Shown here in pieces: positions 1 to 64,000 of a DNA stretch of 64,000 nt. Both the position numbers and the translations under genes were made by a program. Location: the IMG/VR virus record IMGVR_UViG_3300044451_000218; one strand, given 5' to 3'. The stretch is from an uncultured virus (IMG/VR IMGVR_UViG_3300044451_000218). Its lineage: Duplodnaviria > Heunggongvirae > Uroviricota > Caudoviricetes. The notes below the pieces were generated by a model. The model was not told where the DNA came from, did not search any database, and saw nothing but the letters and a program-made list of their open reading frames with translations. The first letter of the stretch is position 1, and the number at the start of each line of letters is the position of its first letter.

Positions 1-3000
1 GCCGTCGTCAACACCACCGGGTGTTCCTTCTTCACCTTCTCGTTGAATGCTCTCAGGTCGGCCTCGTTGTCCTGAACGTCGAAACCGCCCAGGCGAGCCT
101 TGAGCCACTTCTTGAAGTCTTTGACGGTCGGCATCGGTTTGGCCGCGACCGCCCGCATCATCGCGTCGTGCGCCCGGTCGTCCATCTCCTCCACGTCACG
201 CGACATCCCGGTGAACGCCGCCAGTGCGGAGTAAAGAGCTTCCGAGGTGGCGTTCATTTCCTGTAGGTACGCCTTCTTGGAGTTCATCGAACTGAACCGC
301 TCGTTTTCTTTCTTCTGGTACTCTTCGAGCTTCACGCCGAGGTTCGGCCGACCGCCCGCTCGCGGGTGCGGGATCGCCGGGGAATCGTCCCTCATCTTGG
401 CCCCCTTCAAGACCTTGCCGATGTGACGCATCAATTCGTTTGACACGTCGCGACCCACGATGATGAACGGCACGCCGTCGCCCAACATCTTCAACGCGGC
501 CTGAACCAGCGGTTCGTTGGTACGGGCGATGAACGCCGTTTCCGGCATTTTCGGCCCGCCCTTTTTCGAGTCCTCGTGTTCCTTCTTGAGCGTGGTGAAG
601 ACCTCGCCATATTCCTTGTCTTGGTTTGTGACTTCGCCACCACCGCCGTTCGGGTACTTGCTCTCACTGTGTTTGAGGCCGGTAACGTGGCCCATGTTGT
701 TGACGTGGTCGAGAATGCCCTTCCGCGAGCGGTAGTTCGTCGTCAGCGTGTGTTCCGTGTCCTTGTCGCCCGAAAGCTCTTTCAGGGTCCGGCCGAGGCT
801 GTGGAAGGCGTCACCGTCAGCGCCACGGAAGCGGTAAATGGCTTGGTTCGGGTCGCCTACCGCCACGATCTTCGCGCCGGCACCGTGCAACTTCTCCAGC
901 ATCAGCTTTTGGCACGGGTTGAAGTCCTGCACCTCGTCGGCGAGGACCACGTCGTAGTGCGGCCAGTGCATGTCGTGGGCGTTGATCGCGGCGAACCAGA
1001 TGTCGTCCGAGAAGTCGCGCATGCTGCCCAGGTCGTATTCCATGCCCTTGAAACTGAGGGTCTGCGTCGTTCCCTTCGGCAGACTAGCCTTCAGCAGCCA
1101 CTCGGCTGCCTCAGCGATCTCGTCCTTAAAGTTCTTGCCCATGAAGTCGAAGCCGTAGACCTTCTTCAGAGCGGCCAGAACTTCCGTGACCATGCTGCTC
1201 GAACGGTACTTCCTGATGCGTTCTTTGATTTCGGCCAGCCCGGTATCGAGGTCGTAACCCTTGAACAGCTTTTCGAGTTCGGCCTTGACGTGGTTGCCGT
1301 CTTTTCGCGGATCGACGCCGTAAGCTTTCGCCAAGTCAGCGACCTTCTGCGAGACTTCCTTGAACATATAGCGGATGGAGTGTGCGCAGCTTTTCGCGGC
1401 CGTCGTTGAGTATTCCCCAATCGGCATCTTCTCGATGATGGCGTCGGCGGTCGCGTCTTCAACGATGCCTAGTTTCTTCAGCACCTCGTTGAACTGCGAT
1501 CCGTCCACGATTTCGCCCATTTTGCTTCGCGGCATCGGCGACTTTTCTTCCTCGTCCTCGTCTTCCGAAGCCTTGTTCCGCTTCTTGTTGAGTACCTCGA
1601 TCATCCGCTCGGTCTGGTCGATCCGGCTGACATTCTCGTTCGACTTCAGCAAGTTGCCGAGGAAGCCGTTCGTGGTGCGAACGTCAACCCAGGAGGTTGG
1701 GAACTTCTCTTGAGCCTCGACCTTGTTCTTGGTGTTGAACACCAGATACAGCCAGCGTTCGCCCGGCTTGCCGTATTTCCACGCCAAGTGCTTCAACATC
1801 GTCGTGTTGTGTGTTACGACGCAGTTTTCTGTGACGTACAAGTTGTCTTTCGCGTCAACCGCAATGCATTGACACGGTTTTTTGCCAATCGAAGTGATTG
1901 ACTTGATGACCCTAGACGGCTGATACTTTGTTTTGGGAGTGTACTTCTCCTGTTTCCTTTTCAAAGAAAAGGGATTGCCAGAGATTTTGATGTACACTCG
2001 GTAGCAAGGCTTGCCTGATTTTTTGACCCCTTTGTATGTGTAACTCGTTTTCTTGTGGGTGATTTTCCCGGTTCCGCCCAGTGACTCAACGAGGAATTTA
2101 ATGTCTTTGGCAAGACGATACGAAGCGGTAGGGTAGAAAATCGTGTGGGTTCCGACTTCTCCATCTGTGTCGAGAAGTCCGCTCAACACTTTCGCTCTTG
2201 TCTCAACTGTATTGAATTTGTAAATGTCTGGAACAAATTTATTGTCGGACCCCATTCTCCACAAGCCTAGTTTTTTGATCTCTGCCACAATTTCGTTCTT
2301 CCGGCCTTTGATGCCGCTTGAAATACGATAATCGCAGCCATATCCTGTCGGCCGGCTTTTCAAAGCAGGAGGCAGTAACCGATCAACGCTTTCGACTATT
2401 TCTTTGTCTTCCGATGAGTAGGACACGCAGCCGGTTCTGAAACTCCCGCCACCCAGAAGCACGCCCATTAAATACGGATCAATGATTGTCAGTTGCGAAG
2501 CAAACTCGACGTTTTCGACCATTGGAACATAGTGTTTTGGTTGTTTTCTGTAGAGCAAATCGCCAGCAATTTCTTTGGTAGTTAGGACTTTGCCATAAGA
2601 GAAAAGAGGTATTCCCTTTTGTTGACAGTAGACTCTTTCTCGTTTGCATTCTGTCAGCCAAAGGTGATCTTCAGAGCATTCCACAATGGACCCGTCCATA
2701 AATCCGACTTCGACCACTTCTTGCATCCCTTGAGGGAAGACTCCAATAACTTTGTGTGGTTTGCCGTCACGTCCAATGACCAGATTATTGACTTTAATGT
2801 CGCCCATCCTGATCCAGCCTTTTGGGGTCAAGATTTTGGAATCAAGTGGTTGAGCTTTGCCCGACCCGGCCAGAGCGTTGATCATCATGTGATCCTGGCT
2901 CTTGCTGGACATCATCTGCTCGAACCGCGCGTCGATCCGTCGCTGTTCGTCCGACAATTTCTCGTGTTCGAGGACGTGCTTTTTCTTGTCCGCGTCGTTC

Positions 3001-3794
3001 GGCTTGCCCTTCGACAACTTGCCCTCGACCAAATCGTGCAACTCGGCCAGACTCGGCGCGGAGTAGATGCTCTTGCCGTCATCCTGTTTGACCGACTGCA
3101 CCACGTTCGGGAGGTCGGACTTGGTAGTCGCGGCCATACGCTGGCCGCCGAACGTCCAGATCTCCCAAGCGCCGTTCTCGGCCTCGACAACGCCCACGTC
3201 TTCGTCGGCCTTGATCGTTTCGATGTCCTGCTTGGTTTTGGCGTAGATCCACTTCTGGCCCTTAGCAGGTGCGGCCGATGGCTTTGCTTGAGTTTGAGCT
3301 TGTTGTGGTTGTTGCGGCTGTGTGGCTCTGTGGGTGGCGGCGACTTGTCGGAGAGCTTCGATGGAGTCGGCCATTACCGGGGTGTTCCCGTCGCGGACGG
3401 ACTTGACGTAGTTCGCCAGTTCTTTTTCAGACACGAAGGCGCGGGCGTTCGTGTCGAGGTGGACGACTTCCCACGTCCCTTCACGGGGTTTTGAAACGCC
3501 CACGTCATCGCCGGCCTTCAATTGACCGACCGGCTTGATGATTCGACTGTAGATCCAGCGACCCGTGGGCTGTTTGTTGGTTTCCAAGAGGCACCTTGAG
3601 AGGATTTCGTCCTGAATTTCCAGATAAAATGCGTCACCCAGGTCGCTGCGGTGGTAGTTTTCAGCGATCCATTTTAGGTCGGAAACTGACGTTTCGCTGC
3701 CGAAATAGAAGTTCTTGTAGAACCGCGAGCGGCATTCTGAAACGAGCCAGTTTTTGAAGTCGAGTTTCATGTTGTCCTTGTTCTGCTTTCCCAT
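1..3794 (-). CDS. UvrD/Rep (SF1) helicase with long N-terminal extension and an intein; runs off the left edge (absent from ORF track)
   Basis: Manual translation: (MGKQNKDN)MKLDFKNWLVSE... Walker A INALAGSGK|intein|TTMLKHLA, Walker B YDVVLADEVQDFNPCQ, motif III VAVGDPNQAIYRFRGAD. Alternative ATG at 3770. Confidence 0.88.
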   Translation of the reverse strand, partial: MGKQNKDNMKLDFKNWLVSECRSRFYKNFYFGSETSVSDLKWIAENYHRSDLGDAFYLEIQDEILSRCLLETNKQPTGRWIYSRIIKPVGQLKAGDDVGVSKPREGTWEVVHLDTNARAFVSEKELANYVKSVRDGNTPVMADSIEALRQVAATHRATQPQQPQQAQTQAKPSAAPAKGQKWIYAKTKQDIETIKADEDVGVVEAENGAWEIWTFGGQRMAATTKSDLPNVVQSVKQDDGKSIYSAPSLAELHDLVEGKLSKGKPNDADKKKHVLEHEKLSDEQRRIDARFEQMMSSKSQDHMMINALAGSGKAQPLDSKILTPKGWIRMGDIKVNNLVIGRDGKPHKVIGVFPQGMQEVVEVGFMDGSIVECSEDHLWLTECKRERVYCQQKGIPLFSYGKVLTTKEIAGDLLYRKQPKHYVPMVENVEFASQLTIIDPYLMGVLLGGGSFRTGCVSYSSEDKEIVESVDRLLPPALKSRPTGYGCDYRISSGIKGRKNEIVAEIKKLGLWRMGSDNKFVPDIYKFNTVETRAKVLSGLLDTDGEVGTHTIFYPTASYRLAKDIKFLVESLGGTGKITHKKTSYTYKGVKKSGKPCYRVYIKISGNPFSLKRKQEKYTPKTKYQPSRVIKSITSIGKKPCQCIAVDAKDNLYVTENCVVTHNTTMLKHLAWKYGKPGERWLYLVFNTKNKVEAQEKFPTSWVDVRTTNGFLGNLLKSNENVSRIDQTERMIEVLNKKRNKASEDEDEEEKSPMPRSKMGEIVDGSQFNEVLKKLGIVEDATADAIIEKMPIGEYSTTAAKSCAHSIRYMFKEVSQKVADLAKAYGVDPRKDGNHVKAELEKLFKGYDLDTGLAEIKERIRKYRSSSMVTEVLAALKKVYGFDFMGKNFKDEIAEAAEWLLKASLPKGTTQTLSFKGMEYDLGSMRDFSDDIWFAAINAHDMHWPHYDVVLADEVQDFNPCQKLMLEKLHGAGAKIVAVGDPNQAIYRFRGADGDAFHSLGRTLKELSGDKDTEHTLTTNYRSRKGILDHVNNMGHVTGLKHSESKYPNGGGGEVTNQDKEYGEVFTTLKKEHEDSKKGGPKMPETAFIARTNEPLVQAALKMLGDGVPFIIVGRDVSNELMRHIGKVLKGAKMRDDSPAIPHPRAGGRPNLGVKLEEYQKKENERFSSMNSKKAYLQEMNATSEALYSALAAFTGMSRDVEEMDDRAHDAMMRAVAAKPMPTVKDFKKWLKARLGGFDVQDNEADLRAFNEKVKKEHPVVLTT
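1806..2855 (-). mobile_element. 350-aa intein with LAGLIDADG homing endonuclease domain, inserted in the helicase P-loop (class 3-like)
   Basis: GK|AQPLDSKILTP...CSEDHLW...YLMGVLLGGGS...LSGLLDTDG...PCQCIAVD...YVTENCVVTHN|TT; visibly more AT-rich than the flanks. Confidence 0.92.
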
Positions 3795-3901
3795 CACGGT
3801 TATGTAGTTACGCGGAACCGAACTCAAACTGGCAGTTTTTCGATCTCGGCATTGTCACAATCGAGCGTTTCGGTTACGCTTTCTCGAAACGGAGGTTTAC
3901 G

Positions 3902-7143: not shown

Positions 7144-7214
7144 CCACCTTTGGGCCAGTGGCTGGCCAGCGATCTCTAAAATCGCGCACATCGGTTCGAT
7201 TCCGATAAGGTGGG
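7144..7214 (+). tRNA. Amber suppressor tRNA, anticodon CUA
   Basis: Acceptor CCACCTT/AAGGTGG, D arm GGCC-AGTGGCT-GGCC, anticodon arm GCGAT-CTCTAAA-ATCGC (CTA at 7176-7178), variable loop GCAC, T arm ATCGG-TTCGATT-CCGAT, discriminator G; no encoded CCA. Confidence 0.9.
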
Positions 7215-7280
7215 CTGAATCTAAAACAAAATTTGCATTGGTCAGAACGACAATCGGTTCGATCCCCACAAGGTGGGCTG
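7190..7280 (+). repeat. 28-bp imperfect direct repeat of the tRNA 3' end (7190-7217 and 7253-7280)
   Basis: ATCGGTTCGATTCCGATAAGGTGGGCTG vs ATCGGTTCGATCCCCACAAGGTGGGCTG, 25/28 identical, 35-nt spacer. Confidence 0.85.
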
Positions 7281-7293
7281 GAGGAAAACAAAA

Positions 7294-7851
7294 ATGAACG
7301 CTAATGATCTCGTCAACGTATTGTCCGGCACGACCACTCGCAGGGGCTTCCTCGCCGAGACAATGGGTGTTGTGACCGCTCCGTTCTTCGCCACTGACAA
7401 CCTGCTGGCGGATGTCCCTCTCGTTCAGGAACACATCGTCGCCCGCGCCGACCGCCCGAACGGGAACAAACGGATCTACCCGCTCTCCGTGCTGCAAAGA
7501 GTTGTCGCAGATTCGGCCGACGCGGTCGCGCACAGACAGATGATCGGTCAGTTGGGGATGCCCGCCGACAGCATCATCCACTTCAGTCAGGCGAGCCACA
7601 TTGTTAGGTCGCTCAAACTGAGTGACTTCGGCCCGCAGATCGGGTGGCAGTTGATCGCCGAAATCGAACTGCTCGCCACCCCCTGCGGCGTCATCCTGAA
7701 GAAGCTGTTGGCATCGCCCGGACAGGTGGCGTTCAGGACGGCCGGGGTGGGCCACGGCAAGATCAACGATGACGGCATTCTGGTGATTGACGATTCTTAC
7801 AAGCTGGTCGGCGTTCACGCTGTTCCGGCAAAAGACGCCGTGTGGATTTGA
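7294..7851 (+). CDS. T4 gp21-like prohead protease homologue, catalytic residues apparently substituted
   Basis: NGNKRIYP, MIGQLGMP (cf. GELxHP), ASHIV, LLATPCGVILKKLL, FRTAGVG (cf. VSSRGxG); N-terminal TRRGFL. Confidence 0.7.
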   Translation: MNANDLVNVLSGTTTRRGFLAETMGVVTAPFFATDNLLADVPLVQEHIVARADRPNGNKRIYPLSVLQRVVADSADAVAHRQMIGQLGMPADSIIHFSQASHIVRSLKLSDFGPQIGWQLIAEIELLATPCGVILKKLLASPGQVAFRTAGVGHGKINDDGILVIDDSYKLVGVHAVPAKDAVWI

Positions 7852-8932: not shown

Positions 8933-10088
8933 ATGATCGGTGCTTTCATCGGGTTCGTCATCAGTTTGCCGTTCGTGATCGCGGTCGATAGCGTCAGCAA
9001 CTGGTGGATGCTGTGGGCCGCTCTGATCGGCTTCTTCTTTGAACTCGTCGTCCGGCTCGGCGGCGGGGAAGGATTCGGTGACGCCCTCTTACACTTCGGA
9101 GCATGGTCATGGGTCGCAAGCGAGACAACGTGAAAGCTCTCGAAAAGTTCAGCACCGCCGAACTCGAAGGGGAGATCGTCAGACGCAAACAGGGCAGCAG
9201 CGAGTGGGGCTATGTCGTCATGACCAATGACGAGGACTATGACGACAAGCGCCCACGATTCGGCATCGTTAACGTCAAATACTGGCAGAAAAACGAGGGA
9301 CTCGAAGATCGCTGCCTCGGCCACGACGTTCGTCTCCCTCGCGGGTTTCACGAGTCGCAAGAGTCCCAGTATACATACAGCGGCACTCTGAAGGACGGGA
9401 AGACGGCACTTGATAGTGCCGGTTTCAAGTACCTCGGCGAGTGTGACGATTAAGGTGCAATCATGGCAGAAGAACGGAACAAGAAGTGTCCGGCGTGCGG
9501 TGGGACGGGAGAACTCGCCACCTCTCACCGCTTTACCTGCTACGAGTGTAACGGCCACGGCAAAGTCACCGACTCCGAACACGCGAGGATCGCCAAGAGC
9601 GAGGCCGAAATCGGCCGTGCCTTTGACGCCAGACTGACCGCGAGTGAATACCGACAGATGGGTGGATGATGTTCGCGGTTCTTGTTTCTGACGGCACGCT
9701 GGAAAACAAGTGGGGACTGGACATGTTCGCCGTACTCTGTTCGGACGGTGCCATAACCGTCGAAGACGTGACCGGAGCCTGCCGCCGCGAGCAGTGGGTT
9801 CCTTTGGCAGTCACCCGGCCGCGAGGTCAGCCCGAAGCCAACCCCACCCTTCTGCTGTTCGACAACGAGCGAACCGCGCGGAAGTTCGCGATGAAGAACT
9901 TCCCGAAGGACTGGCTCGTCTCGGTCGTACAACTCGCCGACGCCGACCACGAGTGGGTGAAAAACAGGGGCTGGCTGACGGAGAAAATCGACTATCCACG
10001 CACCATGAACTCACACCCGGACTACGAATTGACATACGCCGTCCTCGAATTTAGGAACGTCCCCGATGTCGGCATCATCCGAATGTGA
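8933..10088 (+). other. Small hypothetical ORFs, including a membrane protein (8933-9133) and a DnaJ-type CxxCxGxG zinc-finger protein (9463-9669)
   Basis: CPACGGTG...CYECNGHG; packed ORFs 9103-9453 and 9666-10088. Confidence 0.55.
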
Positions 10089-11037
10089 CAACGATCTCGA
10101 TGCCAAAAGCCGAGTGGCCAGAGAGGTTTTCGACCAACTGCCTCTCCGCAAGAAGGTCGAGTTTGTCCTGCTTTACGGGGAGTGGCAGTACCGCCCCGCA
10201 GAGTCAATCGCGGCCGAACTCGGCGTCACGGTGAAAGAGGTCCAGTGGATTCTGGGCGAGTTGGTGTTCGACGGTATTGCAGTGCTTCACTCTCACAGCG
10301 ATTCATACAGACACGTTGAGAGGACGAACGTGGAAATGAGCCGCGAAGAGAAGTCGCTCAAAGAAGCGATGTTGTGGGAGAAAGCTCGGCCAATCGATCC
10401 GAACACATTCCTGCCGATAGACGATCTTGCTTCGGGCGAATCCGTACTCGATACGGATCAAGATGAGATGTGTGAAACCGCAAACGCTGGATTCTCTATG
10501 TCAGCGAATCCACGACCGCAAAGACAAAAACATCGCCGACACATGAGGGACTTGGTCATGTTGACTGGATACCTGCCGGAAAACCTGATCGTCAAGGCGA
10601 TCACGGACGCCATGATGCACGCCCGCGAGGTGTCCGAGCGGGAACACATCAAGGCCGACCGCATCGAGCGTGTCAACCAGTTCATCGTCAGCCTGCGCCG
10701 TCAACTCGGCTACATGGACGACAAGTACCGTACCGAACGTGAGTACCTGTCCGCGAAGCTCACGAACAAGGAAGTCTGGTACGACATTGGCGTGTTGAAC
10801 CCGGAACGCATCTGGGGCATCCACGACATGCCGTACACCACCGTTCAGCGGTGGGTTCTCCAAGCTCAAGCCGGAATTTCTGTCACCGGCAACCTTCAGC
10901 AAGCCATTGATGGTAGCCTGATGAACCTGAAGGGTACGATCTTGGTGGCGCAGGGTTGCAACCTTGTCACCGACCAACTCAACAAGGACGCGGACAAGGT
11001 GGTTTCTGAAATGGCGGCAATCGCCGCCAATCTCTAA
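10066..11037 (+). CDS. hypothetical protein, possible N-terminal HTH
   Basis: AESIAAELGVTVKEVQWIL; start uncertain. Confidence 0.55.
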   Translation: MSASSECDNDLDAKSRVAREVFDQLPLRKKVEFVLLYGEWQYRPAESIAAELGVTVKEVQWILGELVFDGIAVLHSHSDSYRHVERTNVEMSREEKSLKEAMLWEKARPIDPNTFLPIDDLASGESVLDTDQDEMCETANAGFSMSANPRPQRQKHRRHMRDLVMLTGYLPENLIVKAITDAMMHAREVSEREHIKADRIERVNQFIVSLRRQLGYMDDKYRTEREYLSAKLTNKEVWYDIGVLNPERIWGIHDMPYTTVQRWVLQAQAGISVTGNLQQAIDGSLMNLKGTILVAQGCNLVTDQLNKDADKVVSEMAAIAANL

Positions 11038-16130: not shown

Positions 16131-16675
16131 CAAATGACTCTCGAAGAACTGAAAGAAATCGTGATCGAGAAGTTCAAGGCGTCTTTGATTCAACGCAATC
16201 AGTGGTCAAAGGTGATCATTGATTCCCCAGACGTTTTGCGAGCCGCCATTCTTCAAGAGGACGGGATGATTATCGCTTACGGCGACATCATCAAAACGAT
16301 TGACCCGGATTGGGAACTGGACCCCAATTTCAAAGCATACGAAGTACAAACAGGGTGAGGAAGTCATGACGCTTCAAGAGATCTATGCGATCATCTGGAA
16401 AGAAGGCGTGAATTCGCCTTCTTTGCCGCGAGGGTGGCTTCTTCCGCAAAACCTGAAACCGGCCCAGATCAACGAACATTTCCCGGTCGATGCTTTGGTC
16501 ATGGTTATGGCCGATTCTTACGGGGAACGCGATTTCGTTTACCCGAATCTGAGAAAGAGATCGTGGTGGTTCGGTCGTGTCGAGGCAGCAACAAGTGACA
16601 GGAACGTTCGTGTCAGAAGTACGTTTTCGGGAGCAGTTCGTTCGGTTCCGTACAATAAGATCAGGATTTACTAAC

Positions 16676-17113
16676 ATGACCGTCGTCTGCCAGAACCGCA
16701 AAGCCCGCTTCGATTATGAGGTTGTCGAAACCGTCGAAGCGGGTATTGTGCTGAAAGGCACGGAAATCAAATCCGTGCGAAACCACCGCGTTTCTCTCGA
16801 CGGAGCGTATGCCAGCGTGGACGCCGGAAACGTTACGCTAGTCGGCTGCAACATCGAGCCGTATTCGCACGGCAATGTTCACAATCACGAAGCCAAGCGT
16901 GACCGACGCCTGTTGCTCAACCGGAGCGAGATCGACAAGATCGCGAGCAAAGCGGCGGTGAGGGGGTTCACGTTGATCCCGCTGTCGATGTACATCAAGG
17001 ACGGTCGCGCCAAGATCGAACTGGCCGTCTGTCGCGGTCGGCAGACGCACGACAAGCGGCACGCCATCAAGGACCGCGAAGTGAAGAAGGCGATGAAACG
17101 GGGAAAATTCTGA
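16676..17113 (+). CDS. smpB: SsrA-binding protein SmpB
   Basis: NRKARFDY, EAGIVLKGTEIKSVR, RRLLLNRSEI, GFTLIPLSMY, HDKR. Confidence 0.95.
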   Translation: MTVVCQNRKARFDYEVVETVEAGIVLKGTEIKSVRNHRVSLDGAYASVDAGNVTLVGCNIEPYSHGNVHNHEAKRDRRLLLNRSEIDKIASKAAVRGFTLIPLSMYIKDGRAKIELAVCRGRQTHDKRHAIKDREVKKAMKRGKF

Positions 17114-30954: not shown

Positions 30955-31956
30955 ATGACGGACTTCGACGTGATCGTCCCGCACAAGTCGGTCAGCAGCG
31001 AACGCCTCGGCGAGTGCTGTGAGATCATGATTCGCGGCAACGACGCTTACCGCAAGTGGATGCCGAACATCACCCGGCGTCGGAGTCGCGAGTGCCGCGA
31101 CCTGATCGTCAAGGGCAAGAGCGACGAGGTTCTGAAGTACATTCCGGCCGAGCGGCACGCCGAGTTCAAGGCCGATCTGCCGGTGATCTGCAACGTCGAG
31201 TCCGTGATGAACGACTTGCTCGGCCACCACGTCAGGATGATCGTCAAACTCGCAACCCGCTGGTCAAAGACCAACGAGGGCGAGAAGTCGGCGAAGCGGT
31301 CCTACTACGACGGCGGCGATCTGGCGAGCGAAGGGTTCATCGCCATGTTCGACGCCATCCGCAACTACAACCGGGACCACATCAAGTTCGTGACCTACGC
31401 TTGGACCACTGTGAACCGCCGGATGTTCGCCTCCCTCATGGCGACTTCCCCCATGTCTTGCTTCACGCGGCAAGAGCAGAAGATGCTCAAGAACGCCGTC
31501 AAGAAGCAGTTGGAAACCGGGAACCGCAATCTGGCGGATGCGGTCGCGGGCGGTGTCGTGACGGGCGACCAAGCCGCGCTGGTGCGGGAAATGCTCACGA
31601 TCAAGGTGGTTCTGGCGTCCCGTCTGGAAGAGTCGATGGGACCGGACAGCGAGGGGTTCGACTTCACCAGCATGCGGGAAGGCGTCTCTACCGACCGTTC
31701 GGGGCAGCCCAACGATGCTTGGGGGTTGTACGACTTCATGGAACGTGCGGAACTGGACGACTGCGAGCAGGACGTGCTGTTGTCGAGCCTCACGCCCTTC
31801 CGGGGCTGGCAGGCCGAATGCTCCACGCGGCACAACCTGTCGCGAACCTCCGTCCACAACATTCTGCAACGGGCGTGCAACAAGATTCGGCACGTTGCCG
31901 GTCTGCGCGAAACCGACGCCAACATCGCCCAGTTGATGGTGTCGATGTCTGACTAA
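30955..31956 (+). CDS. Sigma70-family RNA polymerase sigma factor
   Basis: Region 2 DLASEGFIAMFDAIRNYNRDHIKFVTYAWTTV; region 4 LSRTSVHNILQRACNKIR. Confidence 0.85.
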   Translation: MTDFDVIVPHKSVSSERLGECCEIMIRGNDAYRKWMPNITRRRSRECRDLIVKGKSDEVLKYIPAERHAEFKADLPVICNVESVMNDLLGHHVRMIVKLATRWSKTNEGEKSAKRSYYDGGDLASEGFIAMFDAIRNYNRDHIKFVTYAWTTVNRRMFASLMATSPMSCFTRQEQKMLKNAVKKQLETGNRNLADAVAGGVVTGDQAALVREMLTIKVVLASRLEESMGPDSEGFDFTSMREGVSTDRSGQPNDAWGLYDFMERAELDDCEQDVLLSSLTPFRGWQAECSTRHNLSRTSVHNILQRACNKIRHVAGLRETDANIAQLMVSMSD

Positions 31957-47425: not shown

Positions 47426-47854
47426 ATGTCCGAGAACGCGAAGCTCATCATACCCGACAAACTGAAGATCGGGTTTCAGAAGCGAGAAGGAACTTACACC
47501 GGCAAGCTCGCCTTTGTCGTCTACATCGACAGCAAGGGCGTGCTTCGCAAGGCGGGTGTCTACATCTTCAACGTCGCGACAAAAGACGACTTCATCGCCG
47601 ACTCCAAGTACGACTGGATCGCCGAAGCGATCAAGAGCATGCCGAAGATCATGCGTGAGTCGGGCATCAAGTCCGTGGCGATCCCGGCTCTGGGCTGCGG
47701 ACTCGGCTGTTTGGATTGGAAGGTCGTCAAGCAAATGATCGTCACAGAGGCGACACGGCCGGTCGAACACAAGAGCATCGTTGACGACCAGCCGGTGGTG
47801 AAGACAGTGGAAAACTGGCACGACATCGAAGCGGAGGTCTATGAACCGCTGTAA
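47426..47854 (+). CDS. Chimeric ORF with the C-terminal half of a macro domain
   Basis: IFNVATK...IKSVAIPALGCGLGCLDWKVVK; N-terminal macro motifs absent. Confidence 0.6.
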   Translation: MSENAKLIIPDKLKIGFQKREGTYTGKLAFVVYIDSKGVLRKAGVYIFNVATKDDFIADSKYDWIAEAIKSMPKIMRESGIKSVAIPALGCGLGCLDWKVVKQMIVTEATRPVEHKSIVDDQPVVKTVENWHDIEAEVYEPL

Positions 47855-50583: not shown

Positions 50584-50972
50584 TTGAAGACCCCAACGCC
50601 GGGTGAAATCGCCACCCTCTACGGCCAGTACATCTACAACATCGCCCGGCGGATGCTGCGGTGCGATGCTGACGCGGAAGACGTTCTTCAAGATGTGCTG
50701 AAGACCGTGCTTTTGAAGCTGCATACCTTCAAGGGCGACTCCGATCTCAAAACGTGGCTCTACCGCGTATCGTTCAACGCGGCTCTGGCGGCGCGAGAGA
50801 AAATCGTCAAGAGGCAGGCCCGTTTCTGCTCCTGTGACTGGTCATGTCCCACTTCGAGGACAAGAGCAACGGCCAGATCGGAATCGAACTCGGATTGAGC
50901 TTGCCGGCAGTCAAAAGCAGACTCCACCGCGCACGTCGCAGGATGCACAAGCTCTTACAGGCTTACTACTAA
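50584..50972 (+). pseudogene. ECF sigma factor disrupted between regions 2 and 4
   Basis: DAEDVLQDV...LKTWLYRV in one frame; SNGQIGIELGLSLPAVKSRLHRARR in another frame. Confidence 0.75.
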
Positions 50973-55087: not shown

Positions 55088-55462
55088 ATGGGCAAGATGA
55101 ACATCAACGGCGTCGAGTACGACGTTCCTAACGGTTCGAGTGTGTCGGTGGTCAACGGTGTGGTGACAATCGGCGGCAAACAGGTTACGAGCTACACCGA
55201 GCCGGTCAAGCTGAACGTGTTCATCACCGGCGACGTGGGCAGCGTCAACGCGGCCGGCAACGTCGAGGTTCGCGGCAACTCGAAGGCCGTCGATGCCGGC
55301 GGGAGCGTGGATGTCGGCGGCAACGTGGACGGCAAGGTGGATGCCGGCGGGAGTGTCACCTGCAAGGATGTGAAGGGCGATGTGGACGCGGGCGGCAGCG
55401 TCACCTGCGGGAACGTTTCCGGCAGCGTGGACGCGGGCGGCAGTGTTAGTTACCGAAAGTAA
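55088..55462 (+). CDS. Beta-solenoid repeat protein (GxVxAGGSVxC repeats)
   Basis: Tandem VDAGGSV units. Confidence 0.7.
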   Translation: MGKMNINGVEYDVPNGSSVSVVNGVVTIGGKQVTSYTEPVKLNVFITGDVGSVNAAGNVEVRGNSKAVDAGGSVDVGGNVDGKVDAGGSVTCKDVKGDVDAGGSVTCGNVSGSVDAGGSVSYRK

Positions 55463-56946: not shown

Positions 56947-57322
56947 ACATGGAACTCAAGGCGCTATACACCGAAGGCAACAAGCCCGAAAGCGTCGATA
57001 AGGCCGAGGAAACAAGAAAAGTCTTCCTCGACGCCATGAAGACTTTTCTGGCGATGCCGACCAATCCGGTTCTTAGCGCCGAGCAGAAGAAGAAGATCAC
57101 GGACAAGGTCGAGTGGCTGCTGGCGAACGAGTTCCGGCCGACGTTCTGGCGAAATCTGGACTGCCAACTGAACCTCCGGGTCATCGAAGGCGTCGTTCAG
57201 ATGACGCCGAAGCTGCTCGTGTGGGCAGAATACCGGAAACAGTCCGTTCCGAAGGTGAAGGAAGGCCAGACCATCCCTCACGCCAAGAACGGGAAAATCA
57301 TCAGAAGCGCAAAGGGACTGTC

Positions 57323-57928
57323 ATGAAGAACGTCTACAAGGTCAACGGGCTTCCGTTCTGGAACGCCAACGAGATTGCCGAACGCGAACACCTCGTTCGC
57401 GTTTTCCCTCTTTACCTAGAAGAGTTTTTGCGAACCGAGAACGCCGCGTGGCACTCGCACCGCATCGAAGCTCCCGTCCTGACGCCGCACGACCACATCA
57501 ACCCCAACTACACTGATCAGGACGTGTGCAAAGTGTACGACCGCCACATCGAGAACGGCGAGCCGCACAAAGCCTACTTCGAGTGGGCGGTTCGCGGCTG
57601 GCTCTCCGACGAAGCACACCGCTACCCGATGGGGAAAGGCGCTAAACCCGAATACTCCTACTGGGACGGCCAGAAACTCAGCTACGTCGAAGCCCGCAAG
57701 AAGATCTACGCCCCGCTGTACGCCGGCGCGGTCGAACACACCGACGCCTTCAAACGCCTCAAAGAGATCTACGAGGCCGAGAAAGAGATCTGGCTCTGGG
57801 ACTTCGACGCCTACGACCACCACAAGCTCGGCATGACCTACGAGCAGGTGATCAATTCGGAAACAAGAAAGATGGGCCACTGCTTCGTCCTCGGCATGCT
57901 ACTCGAAAACCAACGGGTGTGGGAATGA
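57323..57928 (+). CDS. Probable chimeric ORF with DUF6939-like C-terminus
   Basis: KVY...YPMGKG..YSYWDGQKLSYVEARKKIYAPLY..LWDFD..HCFVL. Confidence 0.5.
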   Translation: MKNVYKVNGLPFWNANEIAEREHLVRVFPLYLEEFLRTENAAWHSHRIEAPVLTPHDHINPNYTDQDVCKVYDRHIENGEPHKAYFEWAVRGWLSDEAHRYPMGKGAKPEYSYWDGQKLSYVEARKKIYAPLYAGAVEHTDAFKRLKEIYEAEKEIWLWDFDAYDHHKLGMTYEQVINSETRKMGHCFVLGMLLENQRVWE

Positions 57929-58917
57929 ACGAAAAGAAACTGATACTCGTTCGGGTCGAACAGTACGTCAGCCCCGAATGGGGACAAGACCGCACCCAGT
58001 GGGTCAGGTACTTCTTGGCACCCGACCTCGAAACTGTCAAAAAGACCGTGTACGAGCGGTACGGCAAGCCACACTACTACAGCATGGACCGCGAAGAACT
58101 GAAATACAGCTTCAGCGAAGAACAGTTCGAGACACTCGACACGAGGATCGAAGACCGTGAGTGATATGAAAAACAAACTGCAAAAGGTCGTCTTCCTCAA
58201 AGACCACCGCTGTTTCAAAGCCGGCGAAGAGGTCGAGTTCGGCCCCGCCGTCAACCTGCTTGAAACCTGTCATGAGCGTATGTAGTATTACAAGACAAAG
58301 TTAAAAAAGGAGATAGCCGTGACCAAGTGGAAAGCGACGTGGCGGTGCGACCTAGAAGAAGAATTCTGCACCGACTTCCACGTCTACGAACTCGACACCC
58401 AGACACTCAGCGAAGCCGCACTGTTCATCGAACAGGACATCGGCTGTCGCGGCACCCTCATCAGCCTCGAACGCGAACTATGAACTACACGCGGCAATCG
58501 ATCCTCGAAGCCCTCAAACTCGCCGGCAAGCCCATCAACCGCGACAAGCTATTCAAAGAGTGGATCGAATACGCCGACATGGACCTCGTCCGCTTCAGCG
58601 AACAAGTGGTGACGGGCAGCGGCACGCTAATGGTCTTCAACGCCGCCGTCGTAGACCTCCTCAACAGTCATGAACCCCGCACAAGAAGTGTGTTTCAAAC
58701 TGATCGTCAAATTGACACGCGGCCTCGAAGCACAAGGGGTACTCGCCACTTATCCGTACCTAAGAGAACAATCGGGCAAACAAGCTCCAAGCACGATCCC
58801 GCACTTTGAACACTGCTTCCGGCAAGCACTCAAAGACGAACTGATCTTCGACATCAAGGGGTTGTATTCCACCAAGCGGCCCGGCGGCATCCGCGACCTC
58901 GATGACGGCTGGCAATC

Positions 58918-59382
58918 ATGACCGACAGTTACAACCCAAGCCCGACCGAAGGTTACATCTGTCGAAAGTGCCGTTGCACGCAAGGGTTCCTCTTGCCGTC
59001 CGGCATGACCGTAGTCTGCCTGAACTGTCCGTGGGAAGAAATGGTTCCAGCAATGATACCCACAGCACCAGCGAACTACCAAAAAGACGGAGTCCCCAAG
59101 CACTTCAACGACTTGAAGGACTACGAGTACCAACTGCTCGTACTCTTCAAGAAACTCCTCGAAAACGGCCCGCAAAGCCCCGACCAACTTTTCGAGTGGT
59201 CGAGCCGCCAGTATCGCTTTGAACACCCCGTCGCGAGCTATCGGTTTTAGGCCGCAGCCACCGACCCCGCAGTCAACCGCCTCTGCCTCCTTGCCTTCTT
59301 GCACCAAGAATATCTCGAAATGCACGACGGCAAGATCACCCTGCCCCAACCGCGAACGCTCGACGCGTCGTGGCGGGCCTAA
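58918..59382 (+). CDS. Zinc-finger hypothetical protein; TAG at 59248 with a 43-codon in-frame continuation
   Basis: CRKC...CLNC; frame open after TAG to TAA 59380-59382. Confidence 0.5.
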
Positions 59383-59394
59383 CCGGAGAAACAC

Positions 59395-59610
59395 ATGCAG
59401 TCCCTCAAGCTCGCCCTCGACCTCTTCCCCGGACTTGACACGGGCGAAAAGACATGCACCATCCGCAAGGGGAAACGAGATATTGACCTCGGCCCCCTGC
59501 TCCTCGCATCCCCTTGCGGCAATCAGAGCCGCGAAGTCTACGTCTACGAGGTGCGGGTCAAAACCCTCCACAACCTCACCCAAGACGAGGCATACGCGGA
59601 CGAAGCCTAA
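59395..59610 (+). CDS. ASCH-domain fragment
   Basis: GEKTCTIRKG...LTQDEAYAD, then early stop. Confidence 0.6.
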   Translation: MQSLKLALDLFPGLDTGEKTCTIRKGKRDIDLGPLLLASPCGNQSREVYVYEVRVKTLHNLTQDEAYADEA

Positions 59611-59611
59611 A

Positions 59612-59645
59612 CGAAGAAGGGGGAACCGAAACTCCCCCTTCTTCG
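59612..59645. terminator. Hairpin between convergent genes
   Basis: CGAAGAAGGGGGA...TCCCCCTTCTTCG. Confidence 0.65.
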
Positions 59646-59783
59646 CTACCGTGGCGGCGGGGCCGGCATCGGGTAAGGTACGGCTGGTGGCGGAATCATC
59701 ACGTCGTCGCATTGGCACTTCTTCTTGCGGTGGACGCAACCCACACACAGAACCACCGCCAGCAGCAGAATCACATTCTTCAT
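59646..59783 (-). CDS. 45-aa predicted lipoprotein
   Basis: AAGGAG RBS; MKNVILLLAVVLCVG-C-VHRKKKCQCDDVMIPPPAVPYPMPAPPPR. Confidence 0.6.
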   Translation of the reverse strand: MKNVILLLAVVLCVGCVHRKKKCQCDDVMIPPPAVPYPMPAPPPR

Positions 59784-60161
59784 GACGAACTCCTTTAGTT
59801 GGGCCGGATCAGTCTACACCGCCACAACCAGTACCGGAGGCCGAACAATGAATCAAGACCAACAACCGCCAGCTACAGACCCGCACGCCCCGAAACACCT
59901 GAAACCGCTCCGCATCTTACGCAGAACCCCGAACAGATCACCGAGGAACTCAAAGCGAGAGCCTCGAAGGTCAAGAAGAAGATCGCACGACTCGAAAAGC
60001 TGAAACGGGTCAGCCACGAAGTCATGCGGATGCGGTGTTGCGCGGCTCCCTAGTTAAGAACAAACTAGCAGAGCGTCATGCCAAAAAAGTGATTTCCCCA
60101 ATGGGAGATGCCATTTTGGTCTATACTGACATCCTCGTGATTAAGGGCGAGGGCGACAGCA

Positions 60162-61637
60162 GTGAAGAACTTCAACGTGGCAACAGATTCCTTGTTCTTT
60201 GTCGCCGAGGGCGATCAAGAAAAGCTCGTTTCTGCTCTCGACATCGAGAAGAACGGCAAGAAGTATTCACAGTTTCTTGGCTCGCCAATGCAACAGGCGA
60301 CCTACATGAACGCCATCGTCGCCATCCTCAGCGATTTGAAGGCCAATGGGAACACGTCCCAATACGACATGTCCACCTTCATGCAGCAGCCCGACTTGTC
60401 AACCAAGTACAACATCTACTTCCCGTGGAAAACGCTCGCGAAAAACGATGTGCATCGCGAGATCGGCTATTGCAGTTCACGGATTCCTGTAGGCCAAAAC
60501 GAAGCGTATCGTTTTAACCCGCACCCACAAGCTTTTGAGTACGAGCTTTGCCAACGATGCTGCGCATATGGTTTTTTGGAAAACATCCTGTTTGCCCGTA
60601 GTGGTGGGCAAGGATGGAGTCCTGCTTTGGCCGGTGAAAACCCCCTGTATGTCTGGAAGACCGGGGAGAACCTCGCCGACTTCATTCAACTGAACAGCGG
60701 CCAGCCTGAAAAGGCCGGGTGGGACGTTCTGAAAACCCTCGGTACTCCAGAATCTCCCAACTTGCTAACGCGCAATCAAACATACACATACAACCCAAGA
60801 CTGATGGAATGTGTGTGGAAGGCACCGCTACAACCTTGCTTTTTGTGCGGCGACTGTGAAATGCCTCATGGCAGTGAAATGTATTCTCGTGGGATCAATA
60901 CGAAGTTTACCAAAGAGTCACTTTTGAAAGGCTTTCAGAAGAAATGGCACGGGTTCAAACCGACCGAGAAGGAACATTTCTTAATTGTCCCGTGCGAAGA
61001 TGATAGGAAACTTGTGCGTAAAGACGGCAAACGCATGATCGCTACGGCAGACAACAAAACTATTGCCGAAGCCGCCTACGCTCAATTTGGTGACAAATGG
61101 ATCGCAATCGGAATGATGGTTGAAAGTGTTAAGAAGTCCTCGATTTTCGAGCAGTATCTCGTGACCCCTGACACTTGCCCGCAGCGAAGGAAACAGCCCC
61201 CGCACAAAAACTTCAAGAAGAGGCTTGACGGCTCAAGGCCCAAAGTCGTTGTTCCAAAACCGATCATCTCTACAGCGGAGGTAAGCCGCGAGATGATCGC
61301 AAAGGCCGTCGCATGCCTGAGCGAGATCCCCCAAGAAAAGCTCGCAATGTTACGCAACGCCTGTTACGGCGCGAGGCATGAAAGCGATGCCGAGGTGTTG
61401 GATTTTCTGGACGGTCTTTGGCGGAAGGTTTACCAGAAGACCCGACTGACTTTCAAGAGGGTCTTTTTTCAACTGGTTCTCGCCTACGCCTGCAACCCGC
61501 GCAGTCGCAAGAGCGGTTACCTTGCTAAACATTTGGCTCGCAACGTTCAGCTATTGGCACAATCGCCCTGTTCTGCCGTTGTGTTCGGCGAAGTCGATTG
61601 GTACTGTGTTTTCTCAACCATGTGTGGAGTGAAGTAA
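60162..61637 (+). CDS. cas8e: Type I-E Cas8e (Cse1)-like protein with probable C-terminal Cas11 (Cse2)-like fusion
   Basis: FNVATDSLFFV; LCQRCCAYG; ARSGGQGWSPALAGENPL; GENLADFIQLN; CFLCG; C-terminal LAMLRNA...EVDWYCVF. Confidence 0.75.
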   Translation: MKNFNVATDSLFFVAEGDQEKLVSALDIEKNGKKYSQFLGSPMQQATYMNAIVAILSDLKANGNTSQYDMSTFMQQPDLSTKYNIYFPWKTLAKNDVHREIGYCSSRIPVGQNEAYRFNPHPQAFEYELCQRCCAYGFLENILFARSGGQGWSPALAGENPLYVWKTGENLADFIQLNSGQPEKAGWDVLKTLGTPESPNLLTRNQTYTYNPRLMECVWKAPLQPCFLCGDCEMPHGSEMYSRGINTKFTKESLLKGFQKKWHGFKPTEKEHFLIVPCEDDRKLVRKDGKRMIATADNKTIAEAAYAQFGDKWIAIGMMVESVKKSSIFEQYLVTPDTCPQRRKQPPHKNFKKRLDGSRPKVVVPKPIISTAEVSREMIAKAVACLSEIPQEKLAMLRNACYGARHESDAEVLDFLDGLWRKVYQKTRLTFKRVFFQLVLAYACNPRSRKSGYLAKHLARNVQLLAQSPCSAVVFGEVDWYCVFSTMCGVK

Positions 61638-61638
61638 A

Positions 61639-63150
61639 ATGGCTACGCTCAGAAATGTGTTCCTCGGCATGTCGCAAATTACGCACTACGGTGCGGGACT
61701 TCCGAATCGCGACAAGAGCGGTGTGTACAAACATATCCCCGTGGGCAACGTGGATCGCGGGATGGTGTCGCCACAGTGCCGCCGTCAGCACGTTCGTGAA
61801 GAGATCGTCAAGCGTATGCCGCACCTCGAACTTTCCGACCAGACGCGGCACTACCCAGACATCCTCATCCCGATGTTGACAGACACGTCCGATAAATTCG
61901 GCGGCGTCGCGTTGACCGAATCGGAAGCAAATGTGGTCATGCAGTATTTCCGCACCCTGCTACAGAAGAAGACCCGCGAAACGAAAAACGGTCGTTCAAA
62001 CGCCACCTACAAACATTGGCCGGACTCCATGCGACTGGTGGCTGCGGCATGTCGAAAAATCAAAGAGAATGGCGGGCAACAATGGTCCGACATTTCCACC
62101 CCGTCATCCACCATCGTCATCGAGAACATTCTCGCCGATCTGGGGCTTGAGAAACAGGACAAAAACGATGACGATGATGATGACAAGAAAGATCCCGAAC
62201 TGGAAGCCACTCGCAACCGAATCCTCAAAGAACTCCCCGGCCGCATGGAGGCCGCGAAGATCGGTTACGATCAAGGTAACGAATTGAAGGCACTCGTTAT
62301 CGCCATCCGCGATAACGTGCCGCAAGAGCAGCCGGAACAAGCGGAGAAAATCGAGAAGCCCAACCAGAAGCCTCAAGCCGGTGGCAAGAGGGGTGCCAAG
62401 AAGACCGTCGAAACCAGCGGACTGGATGAAATTCGCGATAATTTCAAGAAAGCCTTGCTCGCAGAGACGAGCAAAATCAAGGGCAAGAAAATGCTTCGGC
62501 TTTCTGACTGGTGTGTGCCGCCATTCGACGTAGCCCTGTTCGGCAACATGCCCAACGAGAACCTCCACCGGCAGGTTACGCCCGCCATGAACAACACGGC
62601 GGCTATCTCAGTCAACCCGTTGGCCCCGGTCACCGTTTTCAATACCATCGTTGATACCAAACGGCCGGAATCGAACATGGTGCCGGATCAGAGCTACATG
62701 TACGACGCCGTTATGTACTCGTTCGACATGCTTGACTCCAACCAGTTGTTCCAGAACATGGAGCGAGAGGCCACGGTCGCAGAAGTCGAAGCACTGATCG
62801 CGTCGTTCATCGAGTCACTGCCCGGTGCCAAACGCGGCACCTCGGCGATCAATTCGCCGCCGATTCTCGTATCAATCGTGCTGTCGGAGTACAACCAACT
62901 GTGTTGCGAACGCGCCTTCGTAGAGGCAATCAATACGCAAACGGATGATGTTTCACGCATCGCCACCGAACGGCTGTACGGTTTCATGCAGAAGAACCAA
63001 GAACAGTGGGAACCTCTCGATACGTTCGTCTACTCGGTCGATCCCGTACCAGAGAAACTCAAAGCCCGAACCTACCGCAACACGCGGAAGTTCGCGCGAG
63101 CCGTCGCCGAACGCTACGTTGAACTGCGTTGTAGCGTGACCAAGAAGTAA
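61639..63150 (+). CDS. cas7e: Type I-E Cas7 (Cse4/CasC) with a large charged insertion
   Basis: PNRDKSG..K...RGMVSPQCRRQHVR; FDVALFGNM; AISVN; LPGAKRGTSA. Confidence 0.88.
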   Translation: MATLRNVFLGMSQITHYGAGLPNRDKSGVYKHIPVGNVDRGMVSPQCRRQHVREEIVKRMPHLELSDQTRHYPDILIPMLTDTSDKFGGVALTESEANVVMQYFRTLLQKKTRETKNGRSNATYKHWPDSMRLVAAACRKIKENGGQQWSDISTPSSTIVIENILADLGLEKQDKNDDDDDDKKDPELEATRNRILKELPGRMEAAKIGYDQGNELKALVIAIRDNVPQEQPEQAEKIEKPNQKPQAGGKRGAKKTVETSGLDEIRDNFKKALLAETSKIKGKKMLRLSDWCVPPFDVALFGNMPNENLHRQVTPAMNNTAAISVNPLAPVTVFNTIVDTKRPESNMVPDQSYMYDAVMYSFDMLDSNQLFQNMEREATVAEVEALIASFIESLPGAKRGTSAINSPPILVSIVLSEYNQLCCERAFVEAINTQTDDVSRIATERLYGFMQKNQEQWEPLDTFVYSVDPVPEKLKARTYRNTRKFARAVAERYVELRCSVTKK

Positions 63151-63203
63151 AACGAAGACCACATTTCCCGATTTATCGGGAGTCACCAATAAAGGTCCAA
63201 GAC

Positions 63204-64000
63204 ATGAGCGTCATCAAACTGTTTTTGGCCGGCTCACGACAGTGTTACGGACTCGAAAATATCGGCCAAACCAAGCCGTGGCCGACCAAAAGCGCCGTCG
63301 CTGGCATCGTGGCAAATGCGCTCGGCCTCGACTACAAAGACACGACCGAATTCCTCAAAGATTTCAATAAGACCAAAGTACACGTTCGCGTGGACTCTCC
63401 CGGTTCTATCTGCGAAGACTTCCAAGTCGCCACCGGGTTTGGTGATGCAAACGGCCGCGCCCGCACAATGAAGGAAAAGGTTGCTTACGTCGATAACGGG
63501 GTCGTTAAAGAATATAACGCCCCGAAAAAAACCATGTTTACACCCACATACCTCTGCGATGCGAGGTTCATGGTTTTTATCGAAGGCCGACGCGAGGTTC
63601 TCGAAACTTGGGTCGCCGATCTCGAACGGCCCAAACGTCCCCTTTATCTCGGACGGTCGTCATGCCTCCCAAGTGAAAACATCTTCGTGTCCCACGAGGA
63701 CCGAGACATTCAGGAACTGATCGAGAACAGTGTACTCGAACTACTGCCGGGAACCAAATACGAGGGTCAAAAAACACTCAATACGATCATGGAAGTCCAG
63801 AGTGGCGGGTACTTCATCCGAGATGTCGTTCTTACGTTCAAACCGAGCCACACACACGGTTCACGAATGGTTGTTCAAAAGCCAGTGGTCGTGAAAAATG
63901 TTGTCCCGTGGCTGCAAGGCGTGGGCCTTTCCGGGCGAAGAAATCGTCCGAGTAAAAAGGCACGCGATGAACGCCTTTCATATGACAACAATCGTTGCGT
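63204..64000 (+). CDS. cas5e: Type I-E Cas5 (CasD) with C-terminal extension resembling an HNH start; runs off the right edge (absent from ORF track)
   Basis: Manual translation: WPTKSAVAGIVANALG, VRVDSPG..EDFQ, YLCDARF, PKRPLYLGRSSCLPS; still open at SKKARDERLSYDNNRC. Confidence 0.88.
   Translation, partial: MSVIKLFLAGSRQCYGLENIGQTKPWPTKSAVAGIVANALGLDYKDTTEFLKDFNKTKVHVRVDSPGSICEDFQVATGFGDANGRARTMKEKVAYVDNGVVKEYNAPKKTMFTPTYLCDARFMVFIEGRREVLETWVADLERPKRPLYLGRSSCLPSENIFVSHEDRDIQELIENSVLELLPGTKYEGQKTLNTIMEVQSGGYFIRDVVLTFKPSHTHGSRMVVQKPVVVKNVVPWLQGVGLSGRRNRPSKKARDERLSYDNNRC

Follow-up and report, generated by a model that had tools for sequence, protein, structure and literature searches.

A 64,000-nt stretch of DNA from an uncultured virus (IMG/VR record IMGVR_UViG_3300044451_000218, assigned to Caudoviricetes; the whole stretch is called the window below) ends in three co-directional open reading frames (ORFs), which fill positions 60162-64000 on the plus strand. 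The first (ORF1, 60162-61637, 491 aa, GTG start) encodes a large subunit, Cas8e, to which a Cas11 domain is probably fused. The second (ORF2, 61639-63150, 503 aa) starts 1 nt past the cas8 stop and encodes Cas7e, and the third (ORF3, 63204 to >64000) encodes a Cas5e that continues into an HNH nuclease domain, with 265 of its 352 codons inside the window and its 3' end open. Together, they are most probably the effector genes of a CRISPR-Cas system of the type I-E variant I-E2 (Cas5-HNH), on a very large phage, or phage-like element, from lake water.

The large-subunit gene is preceded on the plus strand by an intergenic leader of 108 nt (60054-60161), in which a purine-rich stretch, AAGGGCGAGGG, lies a short way 5' of the GTG start. 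Only 1 nt separates cas8 from cas7, so a separate cas11 gene is absent. The G+C content is 0.52-0.53 in 60001-64000 and 0.55-0.61 across most of the window. A scan with PADLOC (E <= 1e-6) found no Cas protein among the 107 ORFs of positions 1-60000, and thus the 60 kb upstream of the operon are free of cas3; Cas3-type Pfam domains were not found in the window ORFs either. The first-pass annotation of this DNA had described a cas8e-cas7-cas5 operon without an upstream cas3, directly following phage ORFs and a phage promoter. The operon was confirmed, Cas7e and Cas5e by hidden Markov models (HMMs) and Cas8e by the further tests given below, and the absence of an upstream cas3 also held. The promoter did not, as a sigma-70 consensus scan of 59300-60400 gave no promoter-like site. 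The ORFs immediately upstream (57113-60053) matched no PHROG or Pfam family, and it is the wider context alone that supports calling them phage ORFs.

Cas5-HNH and its relatives

ORF3 is Cas5e, with a match to TIGR01868 above the curated cut-off (E 3.5e-24) and to the Cas5e model of PADLOC (E 4.5e-28). The profile match stops near residue 176, and the ORF continues into ...SKKARDERLSYDNNRC at the window edge. A 352-aa entry of the protein collection (P0001) is 100% identical to ORF3 across its whole 265-aa fragment; at full length it would stop at the window-equivalent position 64262. In this protein a linker connects the Cas5 domain to the HNH domain, which opens with R257 (63972) to C265 (63996). 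The suggestion, made from the letters up to the window edge, that Cas5 passes its normal end into an HNH opening (R...D...C) was borne out: R257 and D261 are conserved in 33 of 35 Cas5-HNH proteins and C265 in all 35. Beyond SKKARDERLSYDNNRC, the C-terminus of P0001 has the arrangement CxxC...HH...D...CxxCH, and hence the HNH motifs expected past position 64000 are present in the identical full-length protein.

When P0001 was compared by phmmer with all Protein Data Bank (PDB) chains, the top matches were 388-aa CasD chains of type I-E HNH Cascade entries. The alignment with 8yb6_A, the Cas5-HNH of Candidatus Cloacimonetes (E 5.4e-21; two variant sequences, up to E 1e-19), spans residues 20-311, that is, Cas5, linker and HNH, so that the best match of known structure is itself a Cas5-HNH over both domains. 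Against this assignment, the generic HNH model of Pfam reached only E 3.7 on P0001; the case for an HNH domain therefore depends on the alignment of the family and on the relative of known structure. Three residues of the Cloacimonetes HNH domain, H310, D324 and H333, are featured in a figure legend of the structural paper (PMC11794572, cited here in part), and in the 35-member alignment they correspond to H278, D291 and H300 of P0001, while the cysteines C298, C301, C329 and C332 correspond to C265, C268, C296 and C299. Both H278 and H300, like C265, are invariant in the 35 proteins, and position 291 is D in 29, E in 4 and another residue in 2. The window Cas5 is fused to an HNH nuclease domain, and the predicted catalytic residues and zinc cysteines of this domain are intact in P0001.

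An HMMER search for relatives of Cas5-HNH among 1.84 billion representative proteins gave 2090 matches at E <= 1e-3, of which 132 reach E <= 1e-10 and 5 reach E <= 1e-30. The top 35 or so are 310-460 aa long and matched through the HNH part, and these are followed by plain Cas5e of 200-270 aa. Closest to P0001 are P0008 (355 aa, 46% identity), P0010 (39%) and P0009 (37%); the remaining Cas5-HNH proteins of the 35-protein alignment (A2) are 23-35% identical to it. In a maximum-likelihood tree of the 35 Cas5-HNH and 10 plain Cas5e proteins, in which several outgroup branches were long, P0001 and P0008-P0010 form one clade (support 99/95) and the other 31 Cas5-HNH form a second (96/80); the branching of the two relative to plain Cas5e has a support of just 51/48. 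From the tree placement and the identities, therefore, the window Cas5-HNH is assigned to a side branch of the family that is small and deep. Searches for further relatives of this four-protein branch (alignment A3) gave 37 pattern matches in viral_contigs and 92 in metagenome_contigs, none of which was confirmed. At the nucleotide level, neither of these two collections contained an exact 61-nt match, and megablast against phages gave no hit.

The loci of relatives were collected from genome_contigs by tblastn, which gave 118 relatives, and 80 loci were kept (L004 was dropped as a duplicate of L003). Twenty-eight of these have a match to query residue 300 or beyond and were counted as Cas5-HNH; all are 25-31% identical to the query and lie in bacterial genomes or metagenome-assembled genomes (MAGs). 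PADLOC was applied to 95 of the 189 candidate ORFs, covering 14 loci completely and two ORFs of a fifteenth. In the 14 bacterial loci the gene order is cas8e-(cas11e)-cas7e-cas5HNH, Cas6e follows cas5-HNH in nine and Cas1e in 13; no Cas3 was found among the 95 scanned ORFs.

The large subunit and the question of Cas11

By HMM alone, ORF1 matched Cas8e weakly (PADLOC E 0.005, residues 72-180), and in a collection of 5.8 billion clusters this protein (P0006) has a single relative, P0007 (506 aa, 42% identity). The records of P0007 and of the Cas5-HNH P0008 each give a contig of 7,356 bp, from the same sources. In the ESM Atlas, all 30 feature neighbours of ORF1 are Cse1/CasA clusters (score 0.95, 203-204 of 256 features), and the Atlas model of ORF1 gave template modelling (TM) scores of 0.58 and 0.53 against Cse1 clusters. 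A profile of P0006 and P0007 matched a sole protein in the PDB, the Cas8e of the Cas5-HNH Cascade (8yb6_J, E 1.3e-3; two deposited sequences), through a shared LCxxCC..GLL...GGxG motif. With hhalign, ORF1 matched the two Cas8e alignments of bacterial Cas5-HNH loci with probabilities of 98.5% (E 2e-15) and 98.6% (E 7e-16). An AF2 model of the large subunit built from 2 sequences had a predicted local distance difference test score (pLDDT) of 34.7; rebuilt on 21 sequences, it reached a pLDDT of 61.7 and a predicted TM score (pTM) of 0.61, with the N-terminal domain mostly at 80-95. A Foldseek search with the rebuilt model returned 23 PDB chains at E <= 1e-3; the listed ones are Cse1/Cas8e without exception, and the Cas5-HNH Cascade supplies the top three. 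Because the ESM Atlas, the PDB profile match, hhalign and AF2/Foldseek agree, we conclude that ORF1 is Cas8e.

ORF1 and P0007 have a cysteine cluster, C130/C133/C134 with C226/C229, in common with the Cas8e of bacterial Cas5-HNH loci. Across the 21 aligned large subunits, C226 is invariant and C130, C133 and C229 occur in at least 90%. The cluster may be a zinc site specific to this group of Cas8e.

Bacterial Cas5-HNH loci have two forms, with either a Cas8e of 463-570 aa and a Cas11 of 156-210 aa, or no cas11 and a large subunit of 550-687 aa. We built an HMM from 11 stand-alone Cas11 of Cas5-HNH loci (A5; three verified by PADLOC, the rest 40-62% identical to the first). In the controls, all eight long (fused) large subunits scored 36.7-147 bits at their C-termini, and none of the 11 unfused Cas8e scored above 0 (six were reported, all negative). 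The whole of ORF1 gave 6.9 bits, its residues 383-460 (61308-61541, plus strand), inside a helical C-terminal domain of about residues 375-491, being aligned to HMM positions 8-86. When the C-terminal 135 aa were taken alone, the score was 10.3 bits. We consider it probable that the C-terminus of ORF1 (about 115 aa) represents a Cas11 domain joined to Cas8e, shortened and highly diverged. A Cas8-Cas11 fusion had been named in the first-pass annotation, and the support for it is modest.

The main alternative, distinctly less probable in our view, is that the large subunit is a plain shortened Cas8e, the C-terminal helices being a bundle of its own, and that Cas11 was lost without any fusion. 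At 491 aa, ORF1 is as long as unfused Cas8e, which range over 463-570 aa in 11 two-gene loci, and shorter than all eight fused forms. In addition, Altae-Tran et al. (2023), in the part cited here, reported that Cas11 is dispensable for editing, with reduced activity (PMC10910872). Several of our own results also tell against a fusion. The Cas11 score of ORF1 is low, and that of P0007, 0.5 bits, is at chance level, being reached by 28 of 1000 shuffles. By hhalign, the C-terminal domain of ORF1 gave P 0.12 against stand-alone Cas11, and a direct comparison of ORF1 with stand-alone Cas11 was not significant (probability 0.3-0.5%). The C-terminal domain was modelled by AF2 with low confidence (pLDDT 30-58), and therefore the fold search cannot decide the question. 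A loss of Cas11 is, however, made less probable by the absence of any comparably high score among 1000 shuffles of the C-terminal part (maximum 3.2) or any positive one among the unfused Cas8e, and by the register of HMM positions 8-86, which is that of true Cas8-Cas11 fusions. Furthermore, hhalign of ORF1 extends to residue 459 on the fused forms and just to residue 249 on the unfused Cas8e, and the C-terminal domain alone gave P 0.015 against the fused forms in the same register. As a weak hint in the same direction, chain 8yb6_K of the HNH Cascade (165 aa) is the first Foldseek hit to fall outside Cas8e (E 0.73, probability 0.44).

If Cas11 is fused, as seems probable, ORF1 resembles the fused bacterial loci (L001, L003, L005-L007, L014, L037 and L047), in which cas11 is not a gene of its own and the large subunit ends in a Cas11 domain. 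However, with 491 aa and 6.9-10.3 bits it is well apart from their 550-687 aa and 36.7-147 bits, and thus the putative Cas11 part in the window would be shortened and much more diverged than in the bacterial fusions.

Cas7e

ORF2 is a divergent Cas7e, matching Pfam PF09344 in two stretches (E 6e-30) and the Cas7e model of PADLOC (E 8e-33). Compared with six Cas7e of Cas5-HNH loci, the core motifs are kept (N23 R24 D25 ... D297 G302 M304). Its 503 aa exceed the 373-431 aa of these six by 72-130 aa, because the variable region (about residues 70-296) is expanded; this region is highly charged and includes a DDDDDD run and a lysine-rich stretch. A phmmer search of the PDB gave no match to Cas7e at E <= 0.01. 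In the Cas5-HNH locus of a Limnoglobus sp. MAG (L002:4041-6161), the Cas7e ORF has 707 aa, again with the profile in two stretches; thus, large Cas7 insertions occur outside the window lineage too.

The carrier

The carrier is likely a very large lake-water phage or phage-like element. The window encodes a T4 gp21-like prohead protease (7273-7848, plus strand; phrog_207, E 1.7e-15), the best tblastn hit of which, at 47% identity (E 2e-29), is a 595,163-bp uncultured phage (LR756511.1), with T4-like cyanophages next. Six contigs are on record for P0001 and P0006; the longest, at 475,914 bp, is above the 200-kb size of huge phages. The window DNA was found in lake-water metagenome runs; 14 are listed, seven of them with half or more of the sampled words and five as possible sources. 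According to the part of Al-Shayeb et al. (2020) cited here, the traits of huge phages include SmpB, transfer-messenger RNAs (tmRNAs) and CRISPR systems from which Cas3 and the adaptation genes have been trimmed (PMC7162821). A full-length SmpB, the tmRNA partner, is encoded at 16577-17110 on the plus strand (Pfam PF01668, E 4e-54); ARAGORN found no tmRNA gene in the window. There are also sigma-factor-like ORFs (30955-31953 and 50584-50895), several HNH homing endonucleases, an endonuclease VII-like gene and a SNF2 helicase.

Two results weigh against a phage. The prohead protease is the only virion-related gene recognised in the window, the 64 kb having yielded no recognisable terminase, portal, major capsid or tail gene, and a 40-kb stretch of LR756511.1 shares only two ORF matches with the window. 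The phage carriage claimed in the first-pass annotation is therefore likely, and not proven: the gp21-like protease and the contigs of up to 475,914 bp speak for it, and the lack of recognised terminase, portal and capsid genes against it.

It is improbable, though it has evidence on its side, that the carrier is instead bacterial chromosomal DNA, a megaplasmid or some other extrachromosomal element, with I-E2 serving as an ordinary host or plasmid defence. Besides the lack of recognised virion genes, all 28 Cas5-HNH loci from genome_contigs sit in bacterial MAGs or genomes, and large plasmid-like sequences carry similar translation genes (Al-Shayeb et al. 2020, in part; PMC7162821). Furthermore, tblastn of P0001 against 50,697 GenBank phage records found no Cas5-HNH (one plain Cas5 match, residues 1-216), and Cas7 was not found in the GenBank phage records by tblastn either. 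However, plasmids fared no better, as the 182 plasmid records that match P0001 do so in the Cas5 part only; none reaches the HNH part or covers at least 80%. A non-phage origin also has to account for a prohead protease nearest to that of a 595-kb phage, with further hits in T4-like cyanophages, and for the homing endonucleases, intein, SmpB, sigma factors and suppressor transfer RNA (tRNA; see below), which together fit huge-phage gene sets.

Comparison with known systems and proposed mechanism

Altae-Tran et al. (2023) described, in the part cited here, the Cas5-HNH system as type I-E-related and made up of five genes, mostly without cas3, and with cas8 fused to cas11 in some loci (PMC10910872). 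The same source reports, for the Cloacimonetes system, the only one in which it has been shown, that cleavage of double-stranded DNA depends on the protospacer-adjacent motif (PAM). Past the PAM-distal end, the target strand is cut at 3-4 bp and the non-target strand at 8 bp, and there is collateral cleavage of single-stranded DNA. In the structure, a single Cas11 is present and the HNH domain replaces the second (Nat Commun 2025, in part; PMC11794572). Makarova et al. (2025) name the Cas5-HNH variant I-E2 (PMC12669027, in part). The claim that a Cas3-less type I-E with HNH fused to Cas5 has been described is thus correct, and the architecture found here is already known and not a new kind.

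Our reference for I-E2 is the system of Candidatus Cloacimonetes bacterium ADurb.Bin088 (PDB 8YB6, 8YHA, 8ZLU and others). The window system shares with it a Cas5e with a C-terminal HNH on a long linker, the same H/D/H residues and four zinc cysteines, a type I-E Cas8e with the LCxxCC..GLL...GGxG motif, Cas7e, and, as far as the upstream side is concerned, the lack of a cas3 next to the effector genes. In contrast to the reference, the window Cas5-HNH is about 28% identical (A2) and belongs to the separate four-protein clade (99/95), there is no separate cas11, the large subunit has 491 aa against a chain of 535 aa, and the 503-aa Cas7 has a charged expansion. The window system is, moreover, on a probable huge phage and not in a bacterial MAG, and is known here from genes alone.

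By analogy with the Cloacimonetes system, a Cascade loaded with CRISPR RNA, with Cas7e as the backbone, Cas5 at the 5' handle and Cas8e reading the PAM, would bind double-stranded DNA and form an R-loop. The HNH domain tethered to Cas5 would occupy the place of the second Cas11 and cut both strands near the PAM-distal end; Cas3 would not be needed, since HNH does the cutting. The single Cas11 is here most likely the shortened domain on the Cas8e C-terminus and not a separate gene. The phage might use the system against competing elements or host DNA. We infer the assembly, RNA guidance, cleavage and phage use of the window system from this analogy.

Whether the system is complete depends on the DNA past the window. 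Neither cas6, cas1 nor cas2 was found in the window, which ends inside cas5, and no CRISPR array was found in the 64 kb by Tandem Repeats Finder and a direct-repeat search; a self-contained system, as proposed in the first-pass annotation, would have cas6 and the array past position 64000. A 155,211-bp contig of one lake-water run (X1) contains the stretch and runs 3,343 bp beyond the window end, of which about 3.1 kb follow the predicted cas5-HNH stop, enough to accommodate cas6 and an array. That the window has neither array nor cas6, and the report that phage CRISPR systems are often without components and may use host parts (Al-Shayeb et al. 2020, in part; PMC7162821), would also fit an orphan or decaying effector, inactive or borrowing guides from host arrays, but this is quite unlikely given three intact ORFs with the catalytic and zinc residues kept, relatives of the large subunit and Cas5-HNH at 42% and 46% identity, which argue for purifying selection, and at least 3.3 kb of contig past the window end.

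A 45-nt direct repeat in four imperfect copies (62-100% identity) occurs at 55295-55459, within coding sequence. It is not a CRISPR array but probably a repeated peptide motif (VDxGGxV...).

A comparable type I Cascade, Cas3-less and with an HNH of its own that cuts both strands, is the type I-F4 HNH-Cascade (Cas8f-HNH) of Selenomonas sp. (PMC10910872, in part; PMC11459484; PMC11480323). In I-F4, however, the HNH is inserted in Cas8f on a type I-F backbone and was acquired independently (PMC10910872, in part), whereas in the window it is on Cas5. As for huge phages, Al-Shayeb et al. (2020) described, in the part cited here, phages of >200 kb with CRISPR systems trimmed of Cas3 and mostly of adaptation genes too, for example a type I-C variant with a helicase replacing Cas3, and proposed their use against competing phages or host genes, as suggested here for the window system (PMC7162821). 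The passages of that paper cited here mention type I-C variants, type II and type V, and no type I-E with Cas5-HNH. No phage-borne Cas5-HNH was found in the published literature covered by our search, which did not extend to Al-Shayeb et al. 2022 (Cell), a paper that may describe phage type I variants. The first-pass view that the combination may be undescribed must be narrowed, since the Cas8-Cas11 fusion in Cas5-HNH loci was reported in 2023 (PMC10910872, in part); the phage carriage and the divergent lineage were not found in print. What is new here is the deep, separate four-protein clade, the very compact large subunit, the enlarged Cas7 and the probable carriage by a huge phage.

A further proposal, plausible to us though not quite probable, is that P0001 and P0008-P0010 represent a phage-specific HNH-Cascade lineage, a Cas3-free cutter directed against rival phages or host genes, with a mini-Cas11 Cas8e and a charged Cas7 insertion of about 100 aa. 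If so, the large subunit of this phage lineage would be the smallest among the fused forms examined, and the insertion may alter the geometry of the backbone or recruit partners. If active, it would be the first I-E2 system borne by a virus and would give compact type I editing a distinct scaffold. HNH-Cascades are under development as editors and, to our knowledge, are the only type I systems that give a defined double-strand cut without Cas3. A phage-borne, diverged and compact lineage would broaden their known range, indicating that huge phages have acquired the HNH-Cascade format too, and would offer natural experiments on dispensable parts, since Cas11 is cut down to a mini-domain within a fusion and Cas7 accommodates a large insertion. 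It would not be a new kind of biology, because the mechanism, structures and nomenclature already exist.

Other genes in the window

Most ORFs of the window have no family match. An ORF on the minus strand (3-3827, 1275 aa), which runs off the window start, encodes a UvrD-type helicase with a LAGLIDADG segment of the intein type at residues 543-599. This ORF also had PHROG hits to 'terminase' and 'primase' (residues 289-682), which overlap the LAGLIDADG segment, and it was not counted as a terminase gene. The ORF at 10066-11034 was likewise tried and rejected as a capsid gene, the ESM Atlas giving only leads of the helix-turn-helix type.

ARAGORN identified a tRNA with the anticodon CTA (7144-7215, plus strand), labelled tRNA-Pyl and of the amber-suppressor type. 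Among the stop triplets of the plus strand, counted in all frames, TAG is the rarest (183, with 221 TAA and 964 TGA). A recoding of TAG, which this tRNA suggested, is not evident in the window, as reading it through did not merge or lengthen ORFs. Finally, a small ORF on the plus strand (47426-47851) matched DarG in PADLOC (E 7e-20) and phrog_335, annotated as 'phosphatase'; judging from its DarG-like sequence, it could be a counter-defence gene against ADP-ribosylating toxins.

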